From Candidatus Omnitrophota bacterium (GTDB lineage Bacteria; Omnitrophota; Gorgyraeia; Zapsychrales; Zapsychraceae): a DNA stretch of 64,000 nt. Made by a program: the position numbers and the translations under genes. Shown in pieces: positions 5,086 to 41,344 of this stretch. Where the stretch lies: positions 989-64,988 of the forward strand of contig JADFYE010000012.1 of the NCBI GenBank assembly GCA_015233195.1. Reading direction: 5' to 3'. The notes beneath the pieces were generated by a model that was not told the DNA's origin, did no database searches, and saw only the letters and a program-made list of their open reading frames with translations. Numbering within the stretch: the first letter of the stretch is position 1; each line of letters starts with the position of its first letter.

Positions 5086-7872
5086 ATGCCTAAGAATGTA
5101 GCAATAAAAAAAATTATTTCTTTTATAATTACGATATGTTTTAGTATATCGTCAATTATTATTTACCCTTCAAGATCTACAGCGCAAAATGTTTTACCGT
5201 CTGCTGGAAATATTTTATCTTTATCAACTCCAACTATGCCGGTAGTTTTAAAAGGCATCCGTGCTACTGCAGAAAATCCTTTTCAATTAGATTTTCTAGT
5301 TGACGCTGGTGACTTAAATTCAAGTTCTGATGAAACCATTAAAATAAACGCTCAAAAATCGATTAAATACTTTTTAGCTGCTTTAACCATTCCAGATAAA
5401 GACCAGTGGGTTAATTTATCTCCATATGAAAAAGACCGTATTGTTCCAGATAATTTTGGTAATACTGAAATGGGACGAGATCTTTTAGCTCAAGATTTTG
5501 TTCTAAAAAAACTAACCGCATCATTAATGTATCCGGAAACAGAATTAGGACGAGAATTTTGGAAAAAAATTTATGATCAAGCATATGAAAAGTTTGGTAC
5601 TACAGATATTCCAACTGATACGTTTAATAAGGTATGGATAGTGCCTAGCAAAGCAGTTGTTTATGAGGGATCAGAAGGCGCGTTCATTACTGAAGAAAAA
5701 TTAGATGTGATGCTAGAACAAGACTATATTGCACAGCAACATGGTCGAAGTAATACGCTTGCTGAACCACAAAACAATACTAAACAACCTACTCCAGAAA
5801 CTCAAACACTTATCAAAACTATAATTCTTCCTGCTTTGCTTAAAGAAGTAAACGAAGGCAAACATTTTGAACCCTTGCGGCAGATTTATCATGCCATGAT
5901 ATTAGCCACCTGGTTTAAACGTAATTTAAAAGAAAGCCTATTAGGACAATCGTATGTAGAAAAAAATAAAATTATAGGCATTGATATTGCGGATAAGAAT
6001 GAACGCCAAAAAATTTATGCCCAATATATCGAAGTATTCAAAAAAGGCATGTATGACTATATAAAAGATGAATATGATCCTGTAATTCAAAAAATCATTC
6101 CCCGTAAATATTTTTCAGGCGGATTTAGCCCAGATCAATTAAATGCGATTTTTACACAAAAACGTGAAGAACCGTTCGCGTTCGCAGGAAAAAAACGTCT
6201 TCGCGCAATTCATCTAAATTTAACAACAACGAATAATTCAGAATTAAAACCCGGCTCAGATAATGCGTTACTAGCTTCATCTATTACTGAAAAAGTACAA
6301 AACGTGATCAATGCTTTAGCACAACCCCAAAAACAACCACAAAAATTTTTAACAATAAACGGACAACAAATTATTCCTATTCCAAGAATACAATCTTGGC
6401 AACCAAATGAAATATATGATATAGGAAATGGTCTTGTAGTACGTGTTAGATCAGCACAATTTGATTCCTTAATGAGTTCTAAACATGGGATTAATACTAA
6501 TTATCAAAAAGCTGCAGATATTGCGGTAAGCCCTTCTTTTTTTAATTCAGGAGAAATTCGAACCGAAACAGGAAAAATCTACCCCTATATTATTACAGAA
6601 AAAATAAATGGACAAAATTTAAATACTTATTATTTTAAACATTTAGCAATGGCAACCCCTTCTAATGCTGAGCAAGATAAAGCATGGCTAAAAGAAAAAT
6701 TAAAAATATTAATAAAAAGAATGATCAAAAATAAATTGTTATTAAGTGATTTTAGACCGGATCAGTTTATGCTTGGGTATTCAGAACTAAATGAAAAGCA
6801 GCAAAAAAATATTTGGTTGATTGACCCGGATCTGTTAGAAGAGTTTCCAGAATTATCTTATCAACAGCTCATAGAGCTATATAAATTAAAAATTTATGAA
6901 GATGATTCTTCAGTATGGAATCAACTCTATGAATATAGAAAAATGTTTTTAGAGATTTTGAATGAGATTGAAAAAGAATCCGATACTGCGATGTTAAATT
7001 CAATTAATGGCGGGGATAAAATAGCGCTTGAAGATATTGATGGGACAAAAATGGAGGATGGATTTTTATTGCTAAAAAACGGAACAAAATTACCATTAAG
7101 CCAATATGAAGGCATGAGTAATTATATATTCGTAAATTCATATTTTGTTGTAAGGGTAATTAAGTCTAACGATAGTAAAATGTATGAAAATTATGAAGAA
7201 GTGGCTAAATATGGCATATGTCCACAAATTCTTCGAAAAGGAAAAATCTTTGGAAAAAATGGTGAAGAATTAAAATATATTGCTGTAGAATTAATTGATG
7301 GAAATAATTTAGCCGAGATGAAAAATTCGTTAACTGATTTACAAATAAAAGATTTACGTAAAATACTTCGCGAATTAATTAAACGAAAAATAATAATCAG
7401 AGATTTCTGGCCTGAACAATTTATGGTTGGGAAAAACATAGGAAGAACAAAAAGTATAAAAGAAGTTTGGCTAATTGATCCTGAAAAATTTAAAATTTAT
7501 GAAAATTTATCATCACAAGAAATTATAATAAAGATGATTAAGCAAATAGAAAATGATGGAATGATGTGGGGAAATTCACCGTACCGTAAAGTATTTCTAA
7601 AAGAATTAAATACTTTTTTAGAAAGTGCAGCCGCGGAAAATGACCGAGCAATTTTAACTAAATCCCAAACTAATCGCGATGATCTAGGTGGTATTGATAT
7701 GGGTTCTGATCGTCTAAATTTAGAAAAACAAGGTCCCGGTAGCGCAGCTAAAACGTCAGGAAAATTTTCACAAAAAATCGATTATAATTTCCAAGGTTTA
7801 AGCATTTTAAATATTACTATCGCCTCAAAAGTAGATATCTCCATGTTTTTAGGTTTACCTGCATCAAATTAG
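5086..7872 (+). CDS. Secreted 928-aa protein of unknown function with two tandem degenerate protein-kinase-like repeats
   Basis: Strong RBS AAGGGGGG and an N-terminal signal/anchor (IISFIITICFSISSIIIYPSRSTAQ). An internal duplication of about 215 aa carries LLLSDFRPDQFML...IWLIDPD in one copy and IIIRDFWPEQFMV...VWLIDPE in the other. Confidence 0.8.
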   Translation: MPKNVAIKKIISFIITICFSISSIIIYPSRSTAQNVLPSAGNILSLSTPTMPVVLKGIRATAENPFQLDFLVDAGDLNSSSDETIKINAQKSIKYFLAALTIPDKDQWVNLSPYEKDRIVPDNFGNTEMGRDLLAQDFVLKKLTASLMYPETELGREFWKKIYDQAYEKFGTTDIPTDTFNKVWIVPSKAVVYEGSEGAFITEEKLDVMLEQDYIAQQHGRSNTLAEPQNNTKQPTPETQTLIKTIILPALLKEVNEGKHFEPLRQIYHAMILATWFKRNLKESLLGQSYVEKNKIIGIDIADKNERQKIYAQYIEVFKKGMYDYIKDEYDPVIQKIIPRKYFSGGFSPDQLNAIFTQKREEPFAFAGKKRLRAIHLNLTTTNNSELKPGSDNALLASSITEKVQNVINALAQPQKQPQKFLTINGQQIIPIPRIQSWQPNEIYDIGNGLVVRVRSAQFDSLMSSKHGINTNYQKAADIAVSPSFFNSGEIRTETGKIYPYIITEKINGQNLNTYYFKHLAMATPSNAEQDKAWLKEKLKILIKRMIKNKLLLSDFRPDQFMLGYSELNEKQQKNIWLIDPDLLEEFPELSYQQLIELYKLKIYEDDSSVWNQLYEYRKMFLEILNEIEKESDTAMLNSINGGDKIALEDIDGTKMEDGFLLLKNGTKLPLSQYEGMSNYIFVNSYFVVRVIKSNDSKMYENYEEVAKYGICPQILRKGKIFGKNGEELKYIAVELIDGNNLAEMKNSLTDLQIKDLRKILRELIKRKIIIRDFWPEQFMVGKNIGRTKSIKEVWLIDPEKFKIYENLSSQEIIIKMIKQIENDGMMWGNSPYRKVFLKELNTFLESAAAENDRAILTKSQTNRDDLGGIDMGSDRLNLEKQGPGSAAKTSGKFSQKIDYNFQGLSILNITIASKVDISMFLGLPASN

Positions 7873-16305: not shown

Positions 16306-16466
16306 TATTAGGGCCCCGAAGGATAAAGTTTAAAGCCAAATTTCTGACCTTCCAGAAAGCGGGAGATACCAGCTGGAGGGGTGAATCTCAAAGAACTTGA
16401 GAAGGATAACTGCCATCCTAACCCATCAACTAATCTCGTAGGCTAGGCAGTATTTTTATTTTTTAA
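16306..16466 (+). promoter_or_regulatory. c-di-AMP riboswitch (ydaO-yuaA motif) with a 3' U-tract expression platform
   Basis: Blocks match remembered ydaO consensus/crystal sequences. They are CCCGAAGGATAAAG (16315-28), AGCGGGAGATACCA (16358-71; compare GCGGGGGACCCA), GGGGTGAATC (16378-87; compare GGGGUGAAUC), GAAGGATAAC (16401-10; compare GUAGGGAUAC) and CCCATCAACTAATCTCGTAGGC (16422-43; compare CCCGACAGCUAACCUCGUAAGC). The duplicated GAAGGATAA fits the pseudo-two-fold fold. Stem CTGCC/GGCAG (16410-14/16446-50) is followed by TATTTTTATTTTTT. Confidence 0.6.
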
Positions 16467-16475
16467 GGGGGAGAT

Positions 16476-17252
16476 GTGGATTATTTTAATGCTATCATTT
16501 TAGGTGTGGTTGAAGGTATAACTGAGTTTTTGCCTATATCTTCAACCGGGCATCTGATCTTAACTTCTAAGATCTTACATTTAACAGAAACTGAATTTTT
16601 AAAAAGTTTCGAAATTGCTATTCAATTAGGAGCCATCCTTTCTGTTGTAGTACTTTATTGGCGCATGTTATTAGTCAATAAGAACATACTCAAACAACTA
16701 ACTGTAGCTTTTATTCCTACTGCAGTAATCGGTTTTGGATTATATAAGATTGTGAAAAAATTCTTTTTAGGTAACAGCGATATTGTTATCTGGGCGTTAT
16801 TTTTAGGCGGCATTTTTCTAGTAATATTTGAACTTGTGCATAAAGAAAATAACGCCAAAGATATCGAAAAATTAGAAGATATTAACTTAAAACAATCTTT
16901 TATAATCGGCATATTCCAATCTTTTGCCATAATACCTGGAGTTTCCAGGGCTGCTGCTACTATAATCGGCGGTCTAATATTAGGACTAAAGAGACAAACT
17001 ATAGTTGAATTTTCATTTTTACTGGCTGTACCAACAATGGGAGCAGCAGTAGCTTATGATTTAATAAAAAGTGCGCCAGCATTTTCTTCTGATCAATTTA
17101 TTTTTTTAATTATAGGATTTGTCGTGTCGTTCATTGTTGCCATAGGCGCAATAAAATTTTTGCTAGCATTCATTCAAAAAAATAATTTTGTGGCATTTGG
17201 ATTTTATCGAATTTTATTAGCTATTTTATTTATGTTCTTTATAAAACTGTAG
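16476..17252 (+). CDS. uppP: Undecaprenyl-diphosphatase (BacA/UppP)
   Basis: GTG start after RBS AAGGGGGAG. N-terminal signature ILGVVEGITEFLPISSTGHL and a polytopic protein of 258 aa. Confidence 0.95.
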   Translation: MDYFNAIILGVVEGITEFLPISSTGHLILTSKILHLTETEFLKSFEIAIQLGAILSVVVLYWRMLLVNKNILKQLTVAFIPTAVIGFGLYKIVKKFFLGNSDIVIWALFLGGIFLVIFELVHKENNAKDIEKLEDINLKQSFIIGIFQSFAIIPGVSRAAATIIGGLILGLKRQTIVEFSFLLAVPTMGAAVAYDLIKSAPAFSSDQFIFLIIGFVVSFIVAIGAIKFLLAFIQKNNFVAFGFYRILLAILFMFFIKL

Positions 17253-17370: not shown

Positions 17371-19338
17371 ATGTTAAGTTTATTTAGAAGAATAAAACAA
17401 ATTGTTATTGGAAGGTCAAAAGACCCTCAAGACTCAAAAATATTCCATTCTTTATCATTAATGGCATTTTTTGCTTGGGTTGGACTTGGAGCAGACGGAC
17501 TGTCTTCATCATGTTATGGTCCTCAAGAAGCATTTTTTGCGCTTGGACAACATACCCATCTTGCTATATTTGTCGCACTTGCCACTGTATTGACTATTTG
17601 CATTATCAGCGCGAGTTATTGCCAAATCGTTGAACTATTTCCTGCTGGAGGCGGAGGATATCTAGTAGCCAGCAAATTACTTTCGCCAAACTGGGGAATG
17701 ATATCCGGATGCGCGTTGTTGATCGACTATGTTTTGACTATAACTGTTTCAATTGCCAGCGGGGCAGACGCAGTTTTCAGTTTATTACCTCCAGATTTTC
17801 TTCCTTATAAACTTTGGTTCGCGATACTATGTATTTTCTGTTTAACTATCCTTAATATGAGGGGCGTTAAAGAATCAGTTATGTCATTAGTACCAGTATT
17901 CTTACTTTTCGTATTTACGCACGTGTTCATAATAATTTATTTCTTCATTCATCATGCTCCTGAAATGCCGGCTTTAATCCAGGCAACCCATACTGATGTT
18001 TCTGCTTCTGTTTCTCAATTAGGTTGGCTGGGTGTTATATTTTTAGTTTTACGCGCGTACAGCATGGGGGCAGGTACATTTACTGGTCTAGAAGCTGTCA
18101 GTAACGCAGTTGGAGTATTACGCGAACCCCGTGTTAAAACCGCAAAAAAAACCATGCTTTATATGGCGGTATCTTTGTCAGTGATAGTTCTAGGACTTAT
18201 GATTGCCTATATTATTTATGACTTAAAATTTGCAGACGGTAAAACCTTAAATGCAGTCTTATTTGAGACCATAACTGTAGGCTGGGGCAAGGGTGGTTAC
18301 ATTTTTGTTTTTGTAGCTTTAATATCTGAAGCATTATTGCTATTTATAGCAGCACAAACTGGATTTTTAGGCGGACCACGAGTACTGGCTAATATGGCAG
18401 TTGACCGCTGGTTCCCAAATAGATTTTCGATGTTAAGCGACCGCTTAGTAATTCAAAACGGCGTACTTATCATGAGTATCTTTGCCTTAGCGCTGCTTAT
18501 ATTCACACATGGTTCAGTAGCCTTACTAGTAGTTTTTTATTCGATAAACGTATTTATAACATTCGTGCTTTCCCAATTAGGTATGGTGCGTCATTGGTGG
18601 AACAATCGAGAAAAAGTAAAAAATTGGTTTAAAAAAATGATGGTAAACGGCATAGGTTTAGTATTAACTGCGTTTATCCTTGTATCGATGGTAGTATTAA
18701 AATTTAACGACGGCGGCTGGGCAACATTATTGGTGACTGGAACTTTGATAGCTTTTGCCATATACATAAAAAAACATTATTTAAAAACTGCTAAATTATT
18801 GCGAAGATTAAATAATTTGGTAGTGGCTACTGAAAACGCTCCTGTAGAAAAAGATCCTCACACTGTCATACCCTGCGATAATTCAGCAAAAACCGCAGTT
18901 ATTCTGGTCAGTGGATTTAATGGCATGGGACTTCACACCTTATTCGGAATTTTTAGGTTTTTTGGTCACACTTTTAAAAATTATATTTTTGTTCAAGTTG
19001 GAATTATAGATGTGGAAAATTTTAATTCAACTGAAGAAGTTAAGTCAGTAGAAGAAAAAGTAAAACATGATACTGACCGTTATGTATCTTATATTCAAAA
19101 ACAAGGATTTTATTCTGAAGGCATCTGGTCAGTTAGCGTTGATGCTGTAGAAGGAGTCGCGGAATTAGCACCAAAAGTACTTCAGAAATTCCCTAATTCA
19201 GTATTTTTTGGAGGACAATTAATATTTCCAGAAGAAACTTTAATGTCAAGATTTTTACACAACTACACTTCTTTTTCGTTACAGAAAAAATTATACTGGC
19301 AGGGAGTGCCATTTGTTATTTTACCGATCCGGGTGTAA
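17371..19338 (+). CDS. APC-superfamily permease with C-terminal cytoplasmic domain, KimA (YdaO)-like putative K+ transporter
   Basis: Motifs parallel to B. subtilis KimA as I remember it: GADGLSSSCYGPQE, FPAGGGGYLVASK, LLIDYVLTITVSIASGADA and TGLEAVSNAV. It has 12 predicted TM helices plus a soluble tail of about 170 aa. Confidence 0.7.
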   Translation: MLSLFRRIKQIVIGRSKDPQDSKIFHSLSLMAFFAWVGLGADGLSSSCYGPQEAFFALGQHTHLAIFVALATVLTICIISASYCQIVELFPAGGGGYLVASKLLSPNWGMISGCALLIDYVLTITVSIASGADAVFSLLPPDFLPYKLWFAILCIFCLTILNMRGVKESVMSLVPVFLLFVFTHVFIIIYFFIHHAPEMPALIQATHTDVSASVSQLGWLGVIFLVLRAYSMGAGTFTGLEAVSNAVGVLREPRVKTAKKTMLYMAVSLSVIVLGLMIAYIIYDLKFADGKTLNAVLFETITVGWGKGGYIFVFVALISEALLLFIAAQTGFLGGPRVLANMAVDRWFPNRFSMLSDRLVIQNGVLIMSIFALALLIFTHGSVALLVVFYSINVFITFVLSQLGMVRHWWNNREKVKNWFKKMMVNGIGLVLTAFILVSMVVLKFNDGGWATLLVTGTLIAFAIYIKKHYLKTAKLLRRLNNLVVATENAPVEKDPHTVIPCDNSAKTAVILVSGFNGMGLHTLFGIFRFFGHTFKNYIFVQVGIIDVENFNSTEEVKSVEEKVKHDTDRYVSYIQKQGFYSEGIWSVSVDAVEGVAELAPKVLQKFPNSVFFGGQLIFPEETLMSRFLHNYTSFSLQKKLYWQGVPFVILPIRV

Positions 19339-22720: not shown

Positions 22721-24469
22721 ATGTCAAATATTCCGTTTGTATTTTTAGATTCAGCAGTTACAGACGCACAAAATAAAAATTCTTACCTGTTCGCAAATCC
22801 AGTCGAGATACTGACTGCTTACACCACTTCTGAAGTAAAACTAATATTTGAAAAAATTGACCAATTATCTAACAAATTCTGGATAGCTGGTTTTATTTCA
22901 TACGAAACCTTATATGCTTTTCACCCTAAAATTAAACATAAAAAAATATCAGCCACACCTTTACTATGGCTTGGAGTATTTAAAACCCCCAAAAAATATA
23001 ATCCTAATATAACAACTAATCTTTTGAACTCTACAAAATTTGAACTAAGTAATGACATTTCCTTTAATGAGTACAACCGCACCTTTTCTAAAATTAAAAA
23101 ATATCTATTTAACGGATATACGTATCAGGTAAATTATACTTTTGATTGTATCTTGAAAACTAATTTGAACGGTTTAACGCTATATCAACATCTGCGCCAA
23201 AAACAACCAACTGCTTACTGCGCCTATATTGATACTGGTAAAAACCAAATTATGTCGTTTTCACCTGAATTATTCTTTAGACGAGAAAATAGAATTATAA
23301 CTGCCAAACCCATGAAAGGCACAATTTCTAGGGGCAGATCATTTGCTGATGATAAACAAGCTAAAAATATATTAACCAATGACATTAAAAATCGCGCTGA
23401 AAATCTTATGATCGTTGATCTTTTGCGTAATGACCTGGGGAAAATTTGTGATACTGGTACAGTTAAAGTTAAAAATATGTTTAAACTAGAATCTCACCCT
23501 ACTTTACATCAAATGACATCAACTATAGAAGGCTGTTTAAAAAGAAAAATCAGATACCACGATATTTTTGCAAGTTTATTTCCATGCGGCTCTGTTACAG
23601 GCGCACCCAAATTAAAGACTATGCAAATTATTCAAAAAATTGAAAATGGACAGCGAGGCGTATATTGCGGCGCAATCGGCTATATCTCACCTAAAAATAA
23701 AGCAGTATTTAACGTTCCGATCCGAACCCTCGAGAAAAATAATTCTCAGCAAAACTGGAAGCTAAGAGTAGGCAGCGGTATAGTGTGGGACTCCGATCCT
23801 AAAAAAGAATGGGAAGAATGTTTATTAAAATCAAGTTTTGTGGTCAACACCAAATTATCCAAATTTGAAATTTTTGAAACCATACGAATAAAAAATAAAA
23901 AATTTACATATCTGTCTAACCATTTGCGTCGTTTACGAGCATCTTGCGAATATTTTAAATACCCGTATTCAACACAAAAAATAAATGCAATCATAAAAAA
24001 TATGACTGCTAACATAGATAATGGTCTGTGTGCAGTACGCATTATCATAAATGCTGACGGCTGTATCAATTGGGATAAACGAAGCATATCAGACACTATA
24101 TCATCCGCTAAAATAGTCATAGCAGAACAGCGACTTGATCGAAATAATATTTTTCTATTCCATAAAACTACCTATCGCCCCTGGTATAGTGCGTTATTCA
24201 ATTCAGATAAAACAGAAATTTTTGATTACATATTTTTAAATGAATACGACGAAGTATGTGAGGGAAGCAGAACAAATATATTTGCTCAAATAAATGGTAA
24301 ACTTTACACCCCGCCTATTACCTGTGGTTTATTGCCTGGTATTTTACGCCAACGCCTTATCCAGCAAGGCAAATGCAAAGAAAGAATTCTCACACTCAAA
24401 GACCTAAAAAAAGCTAAAGCAATATACTGTGGAAATTCTGTACGCGGATTAGTTAAGGTAAAATTATAG
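22721..24469 (+). CDS. pabB: Fused aminodeoxychorismate synthase component I (PabB-like) and class-IV aminotransferase-fold aminodeoxychorismate lyase (PabC-like)
   Basis: Chorismate-binding core (PELFFRRENRIITAKPMKGT, NLMIVDLLRNDLGKIC, GSVTGAPK, RGVYCGAIGY). It is followed by about 200 aa with a PabC/IlvE-like C-terminus (SRTNIFAQINGKLYTPPITCGLLPGILR). Confidence 0.8.
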   Translation: MSNIPFVFLDSAVTDAQNKNSYLFANPVEILTAYTTSEVKLIFEKIDQLSNKFWIAGFISYETLYAFHPKIKHKKISATPLLWLGVFKTPKKYNPNITTNLLNSTKFELSNDISFNEYNRTFSKIKKYLFNGYTYQVNYTFDCILKTNLNGLTLYQHLRQKQPTAYCAYIDTGKNQIMSFSPELFFRRENRIITAKPMKGTISRGRSFADDKQAKNILTNDIKNRAENLMIVDLLRNDLGKICDTGTVKVKNMFKLESHPTLHQMTSTIEGCLKRKIRYHDIFASLFPCGSVTGAPKLKTMQIIQKIENGQRGVYCGAIGYISPKNKAVFNVPIRTLEKNNSQQNWKLRVGSGIVWDSDPKKEWEECLLKSSFVVNTKLSKFEIFETIRIKNKKFTYLSNHLRRLRASCEYFKYPYSTQKINAIIKNMTANIDNGLCAVRIIINADGCINWDKRSISDTISSAKIVIAEQRLDRNNIFLFHKTTYRPWYSALFNSDKTEIFDYIFLNEYDEVCEGSRTNIFAQINGKLYTPPITCGLLPGILRQRLIQQGKCKERILTLKDLKKAKAIYCGNSVRGLVKVKL

Positions 24470-29581: not shown

Positions 29582-29959
29582 ATGCAAGAAATGATATTAA
29601 TGATTGATGATGAAGCAGATATTACTAAAACTGTACGATTTTTTTTAGAAGACGCTGGTTATGATGTAGCTATAGCTGGTAATGGTAAAGATGGGCTGGA
29701 AAAAGCCAGATTACATCATCCTAATTTGATTATATTGGACTTAAAATTACCGCAATTACCTGGAGAAGCAGTATGTAAAGAAATCCGTAATGATTCAAAA
29801 ATCGCCAATACTCCTATTATAATGCTTACATCAAAAGATTCAGATACTGATAGGGTAATCGGAAGAGTTATTGGTGCGGATTATTACATGACCAAACCTT
29901 TTGATCTGTATGTTTTAAGCGCAAAAATTAAAGAACTTTTAGATGCTAGAAAAAAATAA
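29582..29959 (+). CDS. Single-domain response regulator (CheY-like receiver)
   Basis: The DDE acidic pocket (MIDDEAD), phospho-acceptor context ILDLKLP, and the conserved T (LTS) and K (KPF). Confidence 0.9.
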   Translation: MQEMILMIDDEADITKTVRFFLEDAGYDVAIAGNGKDGLEKARLHHPNLIILDLKLPQLPGEAVCKEIRNDSKIANTPIIMLTSKDSDTDRVIGRVIGADYYMTKPFDLYVLSAKIKELLDARKK

Positions 29960-29979
29960 GTAAATAAAGATCGAAAAGA

Positions 29980-30015
29980 AAAAAGGTCGTCTATGATAGA
30001 CGACCTTTTTATTTT
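29980..30015. terminator. Strong, potentially bidirectional intrinsic terminator
   Basis: Perfect 10-bp stem AGGTCGTCTA/TAGACGACCT (29984-93/29997-30006) with a 3-nt loop. An A-tract lies upstream and TTTTTATTTT downstream. Confidence 0.8.
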
Positions 30016-30400
30016 ACCCGATCTAAACAAAAATTCTTTAATTTTGTTTAGCCCGGACTACACCTTACATATAATACTACTACCAAACCCGTGAACTGGT
30101 CACGGTATATGTAAGGAAAATGAGATTAATAGGCATATATTTATCGGGGATGGAAACTGTTTGCCAGATTTTTACCCCAAGTCAGTGGCGAATCAATTCC
30201 CTCTTTGAGCATGGCATTTCACGCTTGTTTCGAAATGCTCATTTATTCCTGCTCGTCCCCGATCATTTTTCAAACCTAAGTACTCATCAGATCATTCGAT
30301 CATTATTTCAAAGAACTTTTCTATCCTTATATTATGCTTTTATTAAAATAATGATATAGGACTAAAGTATCCTTGCTATACGATATTTTTCTTGTGATTA
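30016..30400. other. Highly structured non-coding island of unknown identity (candidate ncRNA or leader; strand unresolved)
   Basis: Nested helices read directly from the sequence: 30023-32/30042-51 (10 bp), 30063-73/30106-16 (11 bp) enclosing 30089-94/30100-05, long-range 30143-50/30256-63 (8 bp) enclosing 30214-20/30232-38, and 30325-60. G+C is visibly higher than in other spacers. Confidence 0.3.
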
Positions 30401-30445
30401 TTGTGGTATTATGTTAATTTTTCTACTTATAACGAAAGCGAAAAT

Positions 30446-32140
30446 ATGAAAAAATTCTGCATATTTTTATTATGTATTGCAATACCAACACTTGCAGCAG
30501 CTGCTGCTATGGACTTAGATCCGATAAGAGTATACAGCATGAAAGATATACTCAGAAATTCTGATGAGCCAGAACTTTTGCCAAGTTTATCTTCAGGTGT
30601 TGATATACAATCAAGGGTAAATAATGGAATGCTACAGGATGTTTCTATAAGAGGAGGATCTTTTGAAGATGCTGATGTAAGGATAGAAGGCGTACGCATA
30701 AATAATCCGCAAACCGGACATTTTAATCTTTCGGTACCAATAGTACCAACAGATCTTAAAAATACGCAGGTTGACCTTAATGGTCAGTATATTGATTATA
30801 GTCTGAAGGTGCCTAATAAAAATGAAGGTATTGTCCGAATGTCTGCAGGGAACGGCGGATATGTAGATTCAATTACTTCCGCTTCATTTGGAAAAGGAAA
30901 TACATATAACCGGGTATCATACGAAGGCATGCGTACTGATGGTCTAAGACCAGAAACAGACAGTAAGAAAAATTCAGCGTCCTATACGTTGTTTCATGAG
31001 GCTGATTTATTAACTTCACAAATATACGCGGCATATTTGCAAAAAGACTTTGGTGAGGGCGGCGCTTATGGCGCGCCATGGTATATGCGGGAAGAAGAGC
31101 ATTTAAAACAACAATTTGTTATGGGAAAATTCGCGTTTAAAGAAAATTTAGACCTGATATTAACCCCATATTTTCATCAAACTGATGATACGTTTTTCTT
31201 AGACCGATATAACCGCACTGCCAACCGCAATGACCACACAACATACGTTTACGGCAATGACGCGAAAATGTATTTTATGGATCGTTTGTTTTTTACTAAA
31301 TTGGACATTAGACAAGAAACGCTCCGTTCGACTAATTTGAATAAACATGACCGATTTATTTATGAATTTGGTATTGGTCAAGAAGAAAGACAATTTGGTA
31401 AATTTGGTTATAACTTTTATTGCGGCGCGCTAATGTTAAATAATTTTCCATATCAAACCATTCCTAAAGCTGGTGTATTTTATGATGTATTTGAACAATG
31501 GCGGTTAAGTTTTGATGCGAGTCGTAAATACCGTACACCGTCTTTTACCGAATTATATTATTTTTCACCGTCCAGTCACGGCAATGCTGATTTAGCGCCG
31601 CAATTTTCTGACAACTATGAAGTAGGATTAACCCATAAAACCGAAAAATTTGTAGCCAGAATTGATAGTTTTTATAGATACGAAAAAGATGCAATTGATT
31701 GGGTCAGAAACAATAGTGACTCCTTTTATAGAGCGGTCAATGTAGAGAAGATTCAAACTTCAGGTTACGACTTGAAAGTTCAATATGATCTTGATTGGAA
31801 ATTTTTAAAAAGATTCTCAACTGAATTTACTGGTCTTTATTTAACCAAAAATAATAATTGGGATATGTCTAAATACGCGTTTGAATATTTACGAAACAGA
31901 TTAGTTTGTAAATTAGAACAATCTGTGGGCAAATGGGATTTTGCTTTGGCATATATTTACGAGGATCATATCAGCCAAAAAAGCCGCTCAATAGTTAACG
32001 GGGATATTGTGTATAAAATTTCCAAAAATATGGATACTTTTATTAAAATGGAAAATATGTTTGATAATGATTATTATGAGATGCGGTATATTGAAGCAGC
32101 GCCGATGTCGATTAGGGGGGGAGTGGAAATTAAATTTTAA
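30446..32140 (+). CDS. TonB-dependent outer-membrane receptor (small, BtuB-sized, 564 aa)
   Basis: Signal peptide MKKFCIFLLCIAIPTLAAAAA, a plug-domain motif (IRGGSFEDADVRIEGVRINNP), beta-barrel repeats, and a terminal aromatic residue (VEIKF). The start was moved from 30401. Confidence 0.85.
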   Translation: MKKFCIFLLCIAIPTLAAAAAMDLDPIRVYSMKDILRNSDEPELLPSLSSGVDIQSRVNNGMLQDVSIRGGSFEDADVRIEGVRINNPQTGHFNLSVPIVPTDLKNTQVDLNGQYIDYSLKVPNKNEGIVRMSAGNGGYVDSITSASFGKGNTYNRVSYEGMRTDGLRPETDSKKNSASYTLFHEADLLTSQIYAAYLQKDFGEGGAYGAPWYMREEEHLKQQFVMGKFAFKENLDLILTPYFHQTDDTFFLDRYNRTANRNDHTTYVYGNDAKMYFMDRLFFTKLDIRQETLRSTNLNKHDRFIYEFGIGQEERQFGKFGYNFYCGALMLNNFPYQTIPKAGVFYDVFEQWRLSFDASRKYRTPSFTELYYFSPSSHGNADLAPQFSDNYEVGLTHKTEKFVARIDSFYRYEKDAIDWVRNNSDSFYRAVNVEKIQTSGYDLKVQYDLDWKFLKRFSTEFTGLYLTKNNNWDMSKYAFEYLRNRLVCKLEQSVGKWDFALAYIYEDHISQKSRSIVNGDIVYKISKNMDTFIKMENMFDNDYYEMRYIEAAPMSIRGGVEIKF

Positions 32141-37177: not shown

Positions 37178-38763
37178 TACTAATGATCGATAATTATGAC
37201 TCATTTACTTATAACGTGGTCCAGCTGATATCTAAACTTGGATATCAAGTAAATACTGTGCGCAACGATGAAATAACTATATCGCAGATCGAACAACTCA
37301 AACCATCGCATATCGTAATATCTCCCGGACCGGGATATCCTAAAGATGCAGGCATCAGTTTAAAAGTTATAAAACATTTCGCAGGAACAATCCCGATCCT
37401 GGGTATTTGCTTAGGACATCAATGTATTATTGAAGCTTTTGGCGGACGAATAATTCCTGCCGGAAAAATCGTGCACGGTAAAACTTCAAAAATAATTCAT
37501 GATAATAAAGGAATATTCCGTAATATTATTCAAGGATTAGAAGTAGTTCGTTATCATTCTTTAGCCGGTGATCCTAAGGCTATGCCGGATTGCTTGGAAA
37601 TAACCGCTACGACCGAAGACGGAACAATTATGGGTGTGCGGCACCGTAAGCATCAAATTGTAGGAGTGCAATTCCACCCTGAATCAATCGGTACCAAAAT
37701 GGGGGAAGAGATATTAAAAAATTTTTTCCATTACCGCACTGATGAAGTACAAGCCTTGAAATTAATTGCAAAGGTAACGCGAGGTGAAGATCTTGATGCA
37801 AAAGAAAGTTACCGCATCATGGACGAGATAACGTCTGGAGATCTGGCAGATAGCCAATTAGGCTCATTTTTAGGCGCATTGTCAGTAAAAGGTATTACTC
37901 CGATTGAATTAAGCAGTTTTGTTACTCTTTTACGGGATAAAGCCGGAATCAAAACAGTCATGAAAGGTTGTCTTGACACCTGTGGCACTGGTGGCGACGG
38001 TAAACACACTTTCAATATTTCAACTGCTGCCGCGCTTTTATGCGGTTATGCAGACATAAAAGTAGCAAAACATGGAAATAGGGCAGTAAGTTCTAAATCC
38101 GGAAGTTTTGATTTCTTAAACAGCTTAAAAATAAATACTCAAGGCAAGATTGATGACAATATTAAATCTTTGAAAAAAAATAATTTTGCTTTCTTTTTCG
38201 CGCCAAATTATCATTCAACCATGCGTTATGTCGCAAAAGTACGTCAGGAAATAAAAATCCGCACTGTATTTAACATGATCGGTCCTTTGGCAAATCCCTT
38301 ACAATTAGATTATCAACTAGTAGGCGTATTTGATCCGAAATTATTAGATTTGTTTGCAGCAGCATTGCAAAAATTGGGTCGGAAACATGCTTTAGTAGTG
38401 CATTCTCAAGACGGGTTAGACGAGATAAGTATTGCCGCAAAAACTTCGATACGGGAACTTTTACCAAACCATAAAATACTCTCTTATGAGATTGATCCAA
38501 AAGATTTTGGAATTAAAGGATTTAAATTAACTGATCTTGAAGGCAGTTCATCAAATGAAAATGTTAATGTGTTTATGAAAATTATTTCCGGCAAAAAACT
38601 TGATCATAAAACTCTTGCGGTTAAAAATGCTATAGCTATAAACGCTGGTGCAGCATTTTATATTTGCGGTAAAAGCGAGTCGATAAAAGAAGGATATAAC
38701 TTGGCTATGAAAAAAATATCAGAAAATGGATTTAAAAAATATTTAGAAAAGTTAAAAATATGA
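37174..38763 (+). CDS. trpGD: Fused anthranilate synthase component II (glutamine amidotransferase) and anthranilate phosphoribosyltransferase
   Basis: The N-terminal GATase has MIDNYDSFTYN, GICLGHQ and FHPES. The C-terminal TrpD has CGTGGDGKHTFNISTAAALL and KHGNRAVSSKSGS. It overlaps trpE by 4 nt. Confidence 0.92.
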   Translation: MILMIDNYDSFTYNVVQLISKLGYQVNTVRNDEITISQIEQLKPSHIVISPGPGYPKDAGISLKVIKHFAGTIPILGICLGHQCIIEAFGGRIIPAGKIVHGKTSKIIHDNKGIFRNIIQGLEVVRYHSLAGDPKAMPDCLEITATTEDGTIMGVRHRKHQIVGVQFHPESIGTKMGEEILKNFFHYRTDEVQALKLIAKVTRGEDLDAKESYRIMDEITSGDLADSQLGSFLGALSVKGITPIELSSFVTLLRDKAGIKTVMKGCLDTCGTGGDGKHTFNISTAAALLCGYADIKVAKHGNRAVSSKSGSFDFLNSLKINTQGKIDDNIKSLKKNNFAFFFAPNYHSTMRYVAKVRQEIKIRTVFNMIGPLANPLQLDYQLVGVFDPKLLDLFAAALQKLGRKHALVVHSQDGLDEISIAAKTSIRELLPNHKILSYEIDPKDFGIKGFKLTDLEGSSSNENVNVFMKIISGKKLDHKTLAVKNAIAINAGAAFYICGKSESIKEGYNLAMKKISENGFKKYLEKLKI

Positions 38764-39965
38764 CCAAATACTTCGGACAATTTGGCGGACAATATACTGG
38801 TGAAGTATTAAAACCAGCTTTGCTTGAGTTAGAAAATGCATTTTTGCATATTTTACCGAGTGAATTGTTTCAAAAAGAATACAGCATGCTTTTACGAGAT
38901 TATGTAGGCAGACCTACGCCATTATATTTTGCTGAAAATACGACCAAAGATCTTAAAGGCGCTAAAGTTTATATTAAACTCGAAGGTTTAGCAAATACCG
39001 GCGCGCATAAAATTAATAATGCTTTAGGTCAAGTTTTATTAGCCAAGAAAATGGGAAAGAAGCGGGTTATAGCAGAAACTGGTGCTGGTCAGCATGGAGT
39101 AGCAACTGCAGCAGCTGCAGCTAAATTAGGTTTATCCTGCGAAGTATTTATGGGCGAGATCGACGTTATACGCCAACAGCCAAATGTATTTTTAATGAAA
39201 CAATACGGTGCGAAAGTGACTACTGTCACTGACGGAACAAAGACTTTAAAAGACGCGGTAAACCGAACGTTAAAAGAATGGGCGAATTGTTCGGACTACA
39301 CATTATATATTTTAGGCTCTGCTTTAGGACCATATCCATACCCGGATATAGTCCGCACTTTTCAGCAGATAATCGGTCAAGAAATTAAAAAAGAGATACT
39401 TTCCCGCGAAGGACGGATTCCTGATATGTTGATTGCCTGCTGCGGTGGAGGTTCAAATTCAATCGGAACTTTTACGCCATTTATAAATGATTCTGTTTCA
39501 TTAGTAGCAGTTGAAGCTGGTGGCAGAAATAAAGATATCGGCAACCATGCGGTACGCATGAACGGCAATGGAAAATTAGGTATTATCGAAGGCTATAAAT
39601 CATTTTTTATCCAAAGTGATGAAGGTCAAGTGTTGCCGACTCATTCCATTTCTGCAGGATTAGATTATGCTGGCATCGGACCAGAATTAGCGTTCTTAGG
39701 ACAAAAGGGCAGGATAAAATTTGAAAGCGCTACAGACGAGGAAGTATTAAATGCTTATCAGTATTTCGCCAGAAAAGAAGGTCTGTTATTTGCAATGGAA
39801 TCAGCGCATGCAGCAGCGTATGCTTTACGAATAGTGCCGAAATTGACCAAAGAAGCGATTGTTTGCATAACCATGTCTGGACGTGGAGACAAAGATATTT
39901 TTATAACCGCAAAAGCACTATACGCGGACGAATGGAAAAAATTTTTGAAACGAGAAGGGGCATAG
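38760..39965 (+). CDS. trpB: Tryptophan synthase beta chain
   Basis: FGQFGGQY, the PLP lysine context NTGAHKINN, and CCGGGSNSIG. Confidence 0.95.
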   Translation: MTKYFGQFGGQYTGEVLKPALLELENAFLHILPSELFQKEYSMLLRDYVGRPTPLYFAENTTKDLKGAKVYIKLEGLANTGAHKINNALGQVLLAKKMGKKRVIAETGAGQHGVATAAAAAKLGLSCEVFMGEIDVIRQQPNVFLMKQYGAKVTTVTDGTKTLKDAVNRTLKEWANCSDYTLYILGSALGPYPYPDIVRTFQQIIGQEIKKEILSREGRIPDMLIACCGGGSNSIGTFTPFINDSVSLVAVEAGGRNKDIGNHAVRMNGNGKLGIIEGYKSFFIQSDEGQVLPTHSISAGLDYAGIGPELAFLGQKGRIKFESATDEEVLNAYQYFARKEGLLFAMESAHAAAYALRIVPKLTKEAIVCITMSGRGDKDIFITAKALYADEWKKFLKREGA

Positions 39966-40036
39966 AGGCACAAAGGCGATAGGATATAGGAAAAGTAAAA
40001 ATAAAAATACAAAAAATTAAAAAAATAAAATTAAAA

Positions 40037-40214
40037 TAGCAAATTTTGTAAATTAAAAATCGTAGATATTGAGCGGACGTTGATAATTCGAGCGGGCACG
40101 GCTCGTACATGCTTCATCGTACGAGAGCGAGAATTATCTTCGAGCGCAGATAGTCTCGCAGGGACTAACCAGCTTTCCGCGAAATATCAAAGATTTTTAA
40201 CAAAAATTTGCGTA
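40037..40214. repeat. 178-bp GC-enriched imperfect palindromic element inserted between trpB and trpA (MITE-like or structured RNA)
   Basis: Terminal inverted repeats TAGCAAATTTTGTAAATTAAAAATCgtaGATATTgaGCGGA (from 40037) and TCCGCgaAATATCaaaGATTTTTAACAAAAATTTGCgTA (to 40214). Internal stems are GATAATTC/GAATTATC and CTCGTAC/GTACGAG. It is flanked by TTAAAA at 40031-36 and 40215-20 and preceded by a strongly A-rich tract of about 50 nt. Confidence 0.5.
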
Positions 40215-40234
40215 TTAAAATTTTAAAGGTTAAT

Positions 40235-40984
40235 ATGTCAAAAAATAACGTTCGCTTAATGGCACACTTGGTCGCTGGTTTTCCGGATAAAAACGGATTT
40301 TTACAAGCTTTACAAGCTTTAAAAGACGGTGGAGCAGATACGTTGGAACTGCAAATCCCATTTTCCGACCCTACTGCTGACGGTCCAGCAATAACTTACG
40401 CCAATGAAGAGGCGATACGTAATGGATTCCATGTTGCCCAAATATTTGACTACATCAAACACGCTAAAAATATTGGCTTTGAGCGCATAGTAGTTATGAC
40501 CTACGCGAACATTCCCTTTGTTTATGGAATAAAAAAATATGTGCAAGACATGAAAAATGCAGGTGTCAGCGCTATTTTAGCACCTGACCTTCCGATAGAA
40601 GACGAAGAAAACTTTTATCAATCTGCTTTTGATACGGGAATAGACCCCATGCCGGTTGCAGTTATTAACATGTCCGAAGAACGAATAAAATTATTAAAAC
40701 AAAAACCATTTAAAAAAATTTATATAGCTATACGGGCAGGTATAACCGGAAAACAAACTGCATTAGACCCAAATCTTAAATTATTTTTTGAAAAATTTAC
40801 GGGATATGAATTATACGCAGGATTTGGCATAAAAACTCCTGAACAAATCAAAGAACTCTCTACTTACGCGGATGTTTTAGTGGTCGGCTCATATTTTACA
40901 GAGACCATCATTAACGCGGTTAAACAAAAAACTGATATCTATGCGGAAGTAAAAGCAGCGATTTCATACTTGCTAAAAAATTGA
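40235..40984 (+). CDS. trpA: Tryptophan synthase alpha chain
   Basis: Signature ELQIPFSDPTADGPAI. The start was chosen at the ATG at 40235 (MSKNNVRLMAHLVAGFPD) after AAAGG. The track start at 40208 is a TTG inside the palindromic element's flank. Confidence 0.9.
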   Translation: MSKNNVRLMAHLVAGFPDKNGFLQALQALKDGGADTLELQIPFSDPTADGPAITYANEEAIRNGFHVAQIFDYIKHAKNIGFERIVVMTYANIPFVYGIKKYVQDMKNAGVSAILAPDLPIEDEENFYQSAFDTGIDPMPVAVINMSEERIKLLKQKPFKKIYIAIRAGITGKQTALDPNLKLFFEKFTGYELYAGFGIKTPEQIKELSTYADVLVVGSYFTETIINAVKQKTDIYAEVKAAISYLLKN

Positions 40985-41065
40985 TTTTAATCTAAAATCA
41001 ACATTCAATTTAACGCTTTATTAATTTTTTGTACTTTGTTTTTCTTTCTACTATCAATTAAATAT

Positions 41066-41344
41066 ATGCAAGGCTTAAAAGAATTACTTAAAATTTTTAA
41101 TCAAATAAAAAACGAAAAAGATATGGAACGTCTTTTTCAAGAAATATTCACTGAAAAAGAACGCGAAACTCTTTCTAACCGCTGGCTTTTAATGAAAGAA
41201 ATCCACCGCAATATACCTCAACGTGATATCGCACAAAAATTTCATATGAGCTTATGTAAGATCACTCGAGGAGCTAAAGTCCTGCAAGAAAAAAATTCTC
41301 TCTGCAAACAATTATTGGATAAAAATCACCCCCAGAAAGATTAA
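41066..41344 (+). CDS. TrpR family (Trp repressor-like) DNA-binding protein
   Basis: It aligns by eye with the E. coli TrpR core: FTEKERETLSNRWLLMKEI vs LTPDEREALGTRVRIVEEL, PQRDIAQKF vs SQRELKNEL, and CKITRGAKVLQ vs ATITRGSNSLK. The start is uncertain because there is no clear RBS. Confidence 0.7.
   Translation: MQGLKELLKIFNQIKNEKDMERLFQEIFTEKERETLSNRWLLMKEIHRNIPQRDIAQKFHMSLCKITRGAKVLQEKNSLCKQLLDKNHPQKD

Follow-up and report, generated by a model that had tools for sequence, protein, structure and literature searches.

Orphan non-coding RNA candidates have been drawn from long, G+C-enriched intergenic regions of AT-rich bacterial genomes (PMC6429828, PMC8632094, PMC11109978). The locus described here, a spacer directly in front of a TonB-dependent receptor gene in an Omnitrophota genome, resembles those candidates: it is long, it lies in an AT-rich genome (35% G+C), its core is richer in G+C and strongly structured by prediction, it shows compensatory variation, and it belongs to no existing family. 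However, those candidates normally have tens to thousands of representatives and covariation statistics, whereas ours has two representatives. A structured non-coding RNA family is defined comparatively, by significant covariation across many diverged homologs, and a free-standing bacterial small RNA (sRNA) gene by a promoter of its own and a discrete transcript whose 3' end is defined.

Genes for TonB receptors are classic targets of riboswitches, and the iron-responsive RyhB/PrrF-type sRNAs and OmrA/B are regulators of such receptors. Like these sRNAs, our element is a free-standing intergenic unit with a strong intrinsic terminator that adjoins an outer-membrane uptake gene and probably has a control region in common with it. 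It differs from them in bearing no sequence similarity to them and no detectable complementarity to the receptor start region, and in size: typical base-pairing sRNAs span 50-150 nt, whereas our candidate would be several times larger at about 310-410 nt, has a three-way junction and is far more structured. Cobalamin riboswitches have a B12-box core, a four-way junction and an expression platform, and lie upstream of the regulated gene on the same strand. Like the cobalamin riboswitch (RF00174) and other TonB receptor leaders, our element sits directly upstream of the receptor and forms a multi-helix junction; in contrast to the cobalamin riboswitch, its terminator precedes the structures instead of following them and its strand indicators are opposite. 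We rejected a cobalamin riboswitch because RF00174 was absent among the matches at E≤10 and because no expression platform precedes the ATG. To our knowledge, the Omnitrophota are uncultivated and the regulatory RNAs of the phylum almost unstudied; no report of non-coding RNAs in Omnitrophota was found in the literature that we searched.

The window (the whole stretch of DNA analysed, 64 kb) is compact, with nearly all genes on the plus strand. The spacer (29960-30445; 486 bp) is bordered by the stop codon of a receiver-only response regulator (29959) and the ATG of the TonB receptor (30446). A sequence-only reading of this DNA had called it the largest gap of the window, and it is; the next largest, 282 bp, holds a c-di-AMP riboswitch. 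That reading had also judged its G+C to be higher than that of other spacers, which is only partly right: the spacer overall has 33.1% against 30.5% in the others, and just the structured core stands out clearly (38.5%, with the three-way junction at about 44%). The receptor gene (30446-32140, plus strand) matches Pfam TonB_dep_Rec_b-barrel, has a signal-peptide-like start (MKKFCIFLLC) and encodes a protein identical (100%) to MBF0484161.1 of a Candidatus Omnitrophota MAG. The Pfam Plug domain gave no match in this receptor, nor in several of its closest orthologs.

The folding energy of the spacer (z about -5.7 versus shuffles) lies beyond that of other spacers and of coding DNA. Against dinucleotide shuffles, its core (30011-30270) reached z=-5.8 as a plus-strand fold and z=-3.6 as a minus-strand fold, compared with +1.0 to -3.5 for eight other spacers and a mean of -0.4 (sd 1.2; minimum -2.6) for 15 coding windows. 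Across both genomes that carry the element, z ranged from -5.5 to -7.6. All of the helices listed in the sequence-only reading are present in the sequence and in minimum-energy folds. The "perfect 10-bp terminator" is a real palindrome (29985-30005), but functions as 9 bp with a 3-nt loop: the bidirectional intrinsic terminator (29980-30010), taken as the proposed RNA 3' end on the minus strand, has a stem of 29985-29993/29997-30005 with 5 G-C pairs and A5/T5 flanks; the sequence after the stem is TTTTTTCTTTT when read on the minus strand and TTTTTATTTT when read on the plus. The G+C-rich stem-loop with an immediate U-tract that marks an intrinsic terminator is thus found in 29980-30010. With A/T runs on both sides, and detected on the minus strand with 14 pairs (A/T flanks included) and the tail TCTTTTCGAT, this symmetric terminator could end a minus-strand RNA, as had been proposed.

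Beyond the terminator lie two hairpins, read here on the minus strand. HP1 (30017-30057) has a 10-bp stem (30023-32/30042-51) with outer CCG/CGG pairs and appears in the minimum-energy folds, and HP2 (30063-30116) has an 11-bp stem (CCTTACATATA/TATATGTAAGG, 30063-73/30106-16) that encloses an inner 6-bp hairpin (30089-94/30100-05). They are followed by a three-way junction domain of ~120 nt (30143-30263, minus strand). Its long-range closing helix is P1 (30143-49/30257-63). The P2 arm is bipartite (30207-11/30250-54, with a distal hairpin at 30214-20/30232-38), as is the P3 arm (30152-57/30196-30201, with a distal helix at 30163-66/30186-89). On the receptor side of the junction, a 39-nt linker of repeated GATCATT units (30267-30305), present in the window only, aligns to a gap in the relative's copy and so tolerates insertions; we take it to be probably unstructured. 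A 4-bp mini-hairpin (AGAA-CTT-TTCT, 30312-30322, minus strand) within the conserved block TCAAAGAnCTTnTCTAT was recovered by RNAalifold on both strands, and could be a 5' hairpin of the RNA or a promoter element.

The element has known homologs in two uncultivated Omnitrophota genomes only, that of the window and GCA_015233115.1 (isolate nDJH6bin5; contig L001). Window positions 29980-30445 are homologous to L001 5564-6000, which stands in front of the orthologous TonB receptor. That receptor (P0002) is 62% identical to the window's, directly follows the homologous element, and is the only ortholog above 45% identity among 5.8 billion proteins searched, which indicates a clade with two sampled genomes. 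The relative's MAG is named in the same style as the series from a magnetotactic-bacteria survey (PMC7602337), so these organisms may have a high iron demand.

Gene order in L001 runs from a pabB-like gene through Rrf2, ferredoxin and Hcp to a 628-bp gap, and on to the receptor, an S4-domain protein, TatD and onward; it is the order of the window minus the histidine kinase and response regulator. Since these two-component genes are absent from L001, where the element persists, they represent a window-specific insertion that is unlinked to the element, and the tie to a two-component operon proposed earlier falls away. The TonB receptor is the sole neighbour of the element retained in both genomes. 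L001 carries, between hcp and the shared terminator, a specific 190-bp segment (5376-5560) of tandem GTCACAAGG(A/T)CACAAA units; its centre is AT-rich, and the far end holds an inverted copy, CCTTGTGAC. With histidine kinase and response regulator at this place in the window and the repeat segment in L001, the element seems to have a hot spot for insertions at its left edge. Nevertheless, the terminator has remained attached to the element though the upstream genes differ.

A fused chorismate-binding/aminotransferase-IV (pabB/pabC-like) gene lies immediately 5' of the receptor family in distant Omnitrophota (L002 3201-6829; L076 2063-5701; L077 2003-5725). In these genomes, whose receptors are at most 45% identical to ours, the receptor begins directly after the pabB-like gene or within 162 bp, and the loci examined have neither an Hcp cassette nor the element. 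In the window (pabB/pabC-like gene, 22721-24469; receptor, 30446-32140) and in L001, an Rrf2-ferredoxin-Hcp cassette is inserted between the two genes.

The two genomes are far apart: across ten flanking orthologs, 31% of four-fold degenerate sites are identical between them, a saturated level. Against this background, alignment scores relative to shuffles were z=13 for the whole element, 10 for the three-way junction, 7.4 for the terminator and 7 for the AT-rich block beside the receptor. The HP1/HP2 segment (z=1.3) is not significantly conserved in sequence, yet hairpins occupy the HP1 and HP2 positions in both genomes despite their diverged sequence. Independent single-sequence folds of the window and L001 returned the same terminator, HP1, HP2 and three-way junction. 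By this comparison, the element (29980-30445) is shown to be under purifying selection.

Most of the helices are kept with compensatory changes in the single relative. The three-way junction has 31 common pairs, with 5 compensatory double changes, 2 G-U-compatible changes and none broken. The terminator (9 common pairs) and the HP2 stem (8 common pairs) have 2 compensatory changes each, with no G-U-compatible change and no broken pair, so that 48 pairs, 9 compensatory double changes and 2 G-U-compatible changes were counted in total with 0 broken, among pairs chosen as holding in both of n=2 sequences. Pairing in the junction is 100%, but only 26-45% after a shift of the partners by 1-3 columns; across all counted helices, slid-partner controls gave only 19-63%. 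Shuffle controls for covariation, weak because they involve two sequences, matched the junction in 18/500 cases and the small helices in about 120/500 (up to 122/500). The terminator is homologous to L001 5567-5596, where 7/9 stem pairs (the inner seven) and the 3-nt loop are identical. The HP2 stem reads CCTTACGC/GCGTAAGG in L001, and its inner part is not conserved in sequence but is still a hairpin; the counterpart of HP1 is a 13-bp hairpin of largely different sequence at the same position. The mini-hairpin at 30312-22 adds one further compensatory pair (A-U to U-A).

Other proposed features were confined to the window. ACCCGATC at 30016-23 can form 6 bp with 30143-48 in this genome only, and had been put forward as one side of a mutually exclusive switch; in L001 the sequence of this segment is ACCTAATC, which would pair with one wobble and one A-C mismatch and is buried in the stem of the 13-bp hairpin, which speaks against a switch. 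The hairpin at about 30325-60 is present in the window and its minimum-energy folds, but lacks a counterpart in L001.

Together, these results indicate that the structured element in the spacer is real and conserved and had not been described before, and make it a credible orphan non-coding RNA candidate of a familiar general kind. We see about an even chance that it encodes a structured small RNA, non-coding and restricted to one Omnitrophota clade, and most likely one transcribed from the minus strand.

We then considered whether the conservation might reflect a small protein, either the 79-codon ORF at 30120-30359 (plus strand) or a shorter ORF on either strand. The 79-codon ORF has an ATG start with AAGGA just upstream. 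It found no protein match at E≤0.001 among 1.84 billion representatives and no Pfam match, and L001 has stops in place of an equivalent ORF. Moreover, the alignment of the window with L001 places indels of 1, 2 and 7 nt inside the ORF, with a 39-nt insertion and other 2-nt gaps elsewhere in the spacer, such that every frame is broken between the genomes. Short minus-strand ORFs lie in differing, non-matching frames in the two genomes. A conserved 79-aa protein was therefore rejected (no homologs, no ORF in L001, frame-breaking indels), and we regard a small protein of any of these kinds as very improbable. The ORF is judged spurious, its frame not being conserved as protein in L001 or among the 1.84 billion representatives. 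The island is non-coding and densely structured, in agreement with the sequence-only reading. Another ATG, in the terminator loop (window 29994-30094; L001 5576-5623), was also rejected as a peptide start, as the two frames differ further on and reach their stops after 33 and 14 codons. These frames start alike (MIDDLFILPD in the window and MIDGFFVLPN in L001), a similarity that results from the conserved terminator and TTACC motif.

The element could instead belong to an existing RNA family. When the spacer was compared on both strands with all of Rfam 15 (4227 models, including cobalamin, TPP, 6S, RNase P, SRP, tmRNA, HEARO and hammerhead), no match reached the gathering threshold, consistent with the failure of the sequence-only reading to place it. 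Matches in 29900-30500 were driven by the terminator and fell far below threshold, the core (30011-30340) had no match at E≤10 on either strand, and the L001 copy returned only sub-threshold snoRNA and leader noise. ARAGORN found no tRNA or tmRNA. The hammerhead core consists of CUGANGA and GAAA strands with a cleavage-site UH in a three-way junction; the minus-strand junction strands of our element (AC, AAAGA/AAGAU and AU/AA) lack this core and no hammerhead model matched, so a hammerhead was rejected. An RNase P P4-like motif, AGTCCGGGCT (minus strand, 30060-51), was dismissed as chance, being not conserved in L001 and accompanied by no RNase P model match.

Searches for further copies recovered the same two. 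A covariance model of the three-way junction (R1) gave the two copies 144.5 and 165.6 bits and found no others, with no copy elsewhere in the window, near five distant receptor orthologs or near three related Hcp cassettes. A second copy in the 64-kb window was likewise absent by blastn, as was any match among plasmids and phages. One pattern match in viral contigs was rejected by the covariance model. In GTDB representative genomes, the DNA pattern found only the L001 contig and one chance match, inside an ammonium-transporter-like gene, and the receptor protein pattern found no match. Seventy pattern matches in JGI metagenomes were set aside as chance, with G+C of 0.41-0.75 (mostly >0.5), no CCCGATC following and no blastn similarity. 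It is conceivable, though quite unlikely in our view, that the two copies are the founding pair of a new large structured non-coding RNA class in a probably magnetotactic Omnitrophota clade, either as a ligand- or protein-binding three-way-junction RNA co-regulated with TonB uptake or as a plus-strand riboswitch class controlling the receptor.

Alternatively, the helices might act at the level of DNA or be a decaying relic, in either case having no RNA function: a scar or end of the Rrf2-ferredoxin-Hcp insertion between pabB and the receptor, or a single-stranded DNA structure for recombination or protein binding. Compensatory changes would preserve DNA hairpins equally well. The element occurs only in the clade with the cassette insertion, its left edge is an insertion hot spot, and the distant orthologous receptors directly follow pabB with no spacer or a short one. 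Conservation far above that of saturated neutral sites, however, argues that the element is not a decaying relic. Mobile repeats such as MITEs and REPs occur in several copies within or between genomes and have terminal inverted repeats. A MITE, REP or other mobile repeat was rejected because the element is single-copy in the 64-kb window and gave no second copy in the plasmid, phage, viral-contig, GTDB-representative and JGI searches. Related Rrf2-ferredoxin-Hcp cassettes examined at other loci also lack the element, and a three-way junction of several helices, with wobble pairs and A-rich junction strands, is less expected of a DNA structure. We therefore consider a role in DNA alone, or a relic, unlikely.

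Returning to a structured small RNA, we examined which strand would be transcribed. In the conserved helices, six cells form G-U wobbles on the minus strand that would be A-C on the plus strand, versus one in the opposite sense. One P3 pair contributes in both genomes, another P3 pair and one of P2 do so in the window, and L001 adds two pairs of HP1. Read on the minus strand, the L001 HP1 stem thus contains G-U and U-G (-17.6 kcal/mol), where the plus strand would have A-C mismatches (-8.1 kcal/mol). The consensus fold is also stronger on the minus strand (-35.4 versus -26.9 kcal/mol), as is the L001 fold (-86.8 versus -76.8). A-rich loops are typical of functional RNAs, and unpaired junction bases on the minus strand are 48-49% A. 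The terminator has also travelled with the element while the DNA before it differs between the genomes, and the 12 nt between terminator and HP1 are too few to hold a plus-strand promoter. Thermodynamic z-scores do not separate the strands (window, -5.8 plus and -3.6 minus). The other, modest indicators make transcription from the minus strand about twice as probable as transcription from the plus strand.

Transcribed from the plus strand, the element would be a long cis-regulatory leader of the receptor, riboswitch-like or protein-binding, reached by read-through of the terminator or from an unrecognised promoter. It always lies directly 5' of the receptor, on the side of the receptor's coding strand, and TonB receptors are known for riboswitch control; the window z-score is the better on the plus strand (-5.8 versus -3.6), and one wobble cell favours that strand. 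Such a leader would nevertheless begin with a strong terminator 12 nt ahead of the first helix and no conserved promoter between them, and would leave about 180 nt between the junction and the start codon that tolerate insertions, have no conserved structure, and contain neither a terminator nor a helix sequestering the Shine-Dalgarno sequence. It would also carry A-C mismatches in P3 and HP1 and U-rich loops, it matches neither the cobalamin nor any other riboswitch model, and the alternative helix proposed for it is not conserved. We hold a plus-strand leader to be possible but doubtful.

For a minus-strand small RNA gene, the promoter would lie in the AT-rich block beside the receptor (30354-30422), which includes ATATAGGACTAAAGT (30354-68), ATTTTTCTTGTGATTAT (30385-30401) and TTATGnTAATTTTT (30409-22). 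This block is the best conserved part of the spacer (75% identity with L001 over 127 nt; blastn E=5e-16), and folds of both genomes gave no conserved secondary structure for it. It may represent a divergent promoter or regulatory region common to the RNA and the receptor, perhaps with a regulator site. Candidate promoters in the block are TTGTGA-17-TAATTT, with TG in front, on the plus strand, and TAGAAA-17-AATAAT on the minus strand, whose -10 overlaps the plus-strand -35. As promoter-like matches in the AT-rich region occur at chance frequency (8 versus 7.3 expected from shuffles), these assignments are putative, and comparison of the window with L001 revealed no -35/-10 pair on the minus strand whose conservation is convincing. 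The extended -10 (TGgTATTAT, 30404-12) that the sequence-only reading had assigned to the receptor is present in the window, but reads CGTAGTTAT in L001. A Fur-box-like half-site (AATAATGATA, about 30348-57) and a promoter-like TTTAGC-17-TATAAT (30047-75) were rejected, as neither is conserved in L001.

We infer the strand, transcript ends, promoter and any function of the element as follows. Transcription would start in the AT-rich block, at about 30320-30390, and head away from the receptor gene. The transcript would then pass through the linker, the three-way junction (30263 to 30143) and the hairpins at 30116-30063 and 30057-17, and would end at the intrinsic terminator (30010-29980) with a length of roughly 310-410 nt. 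The element would in this way make a candidate sRNA gene with a 3' end predicted at the terminator and a putative promoter. RNA and receptor would form a conserved divergent pair with one short common control region. They may be co-regulated, with the RNA perhaps acting in trans as a protein-binding or base-pairing regulator. Duplex prediction between the RNA and the TonB translation start gave complementarity no better than shuffles. Given its size and junction architecture, the RNA would more plausibly bind a protein or ligand than act by simple base pairing.

If its transcript is confirmed, the element would give a lineage-specific RNA of about 300-400 nt that is built on a defined three-way-junction core and stands beside an outer-membrane uptake gene; it would offer a handle on uptake control in Omnitrophota and a new RNA database family. 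At two members, it is at present a candidate that merits deposition and renewed searches, short of a discovery.

Two other structured regions were observed in the window. A c-di-AMP (ydaO-type) riboswitch (16324-16459, plus strand; 68.7 bits) is the sole gathering-level Rfam match in the window. The gene just downstream of it encodes a BacA/UppP undecaprenyl-diphosphatase (16476-17252), and an amino-acid permease gene comes next (17371-19338). Although trpB and trpA usually abut, the trpB-like gene (38760-39965) and trpA (40208-40984) are separated here by a 242-bp spacer (39966-40207). After an A-rich stretch, this spacer contains a rather G+C-rich, multi-branched plus-strand fold (40053-40200; MFE -54.1, z=-4.0) that had no Rfam match at E≤1. 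A Trp-repressor-family gene (41036-41344) follows trpA.
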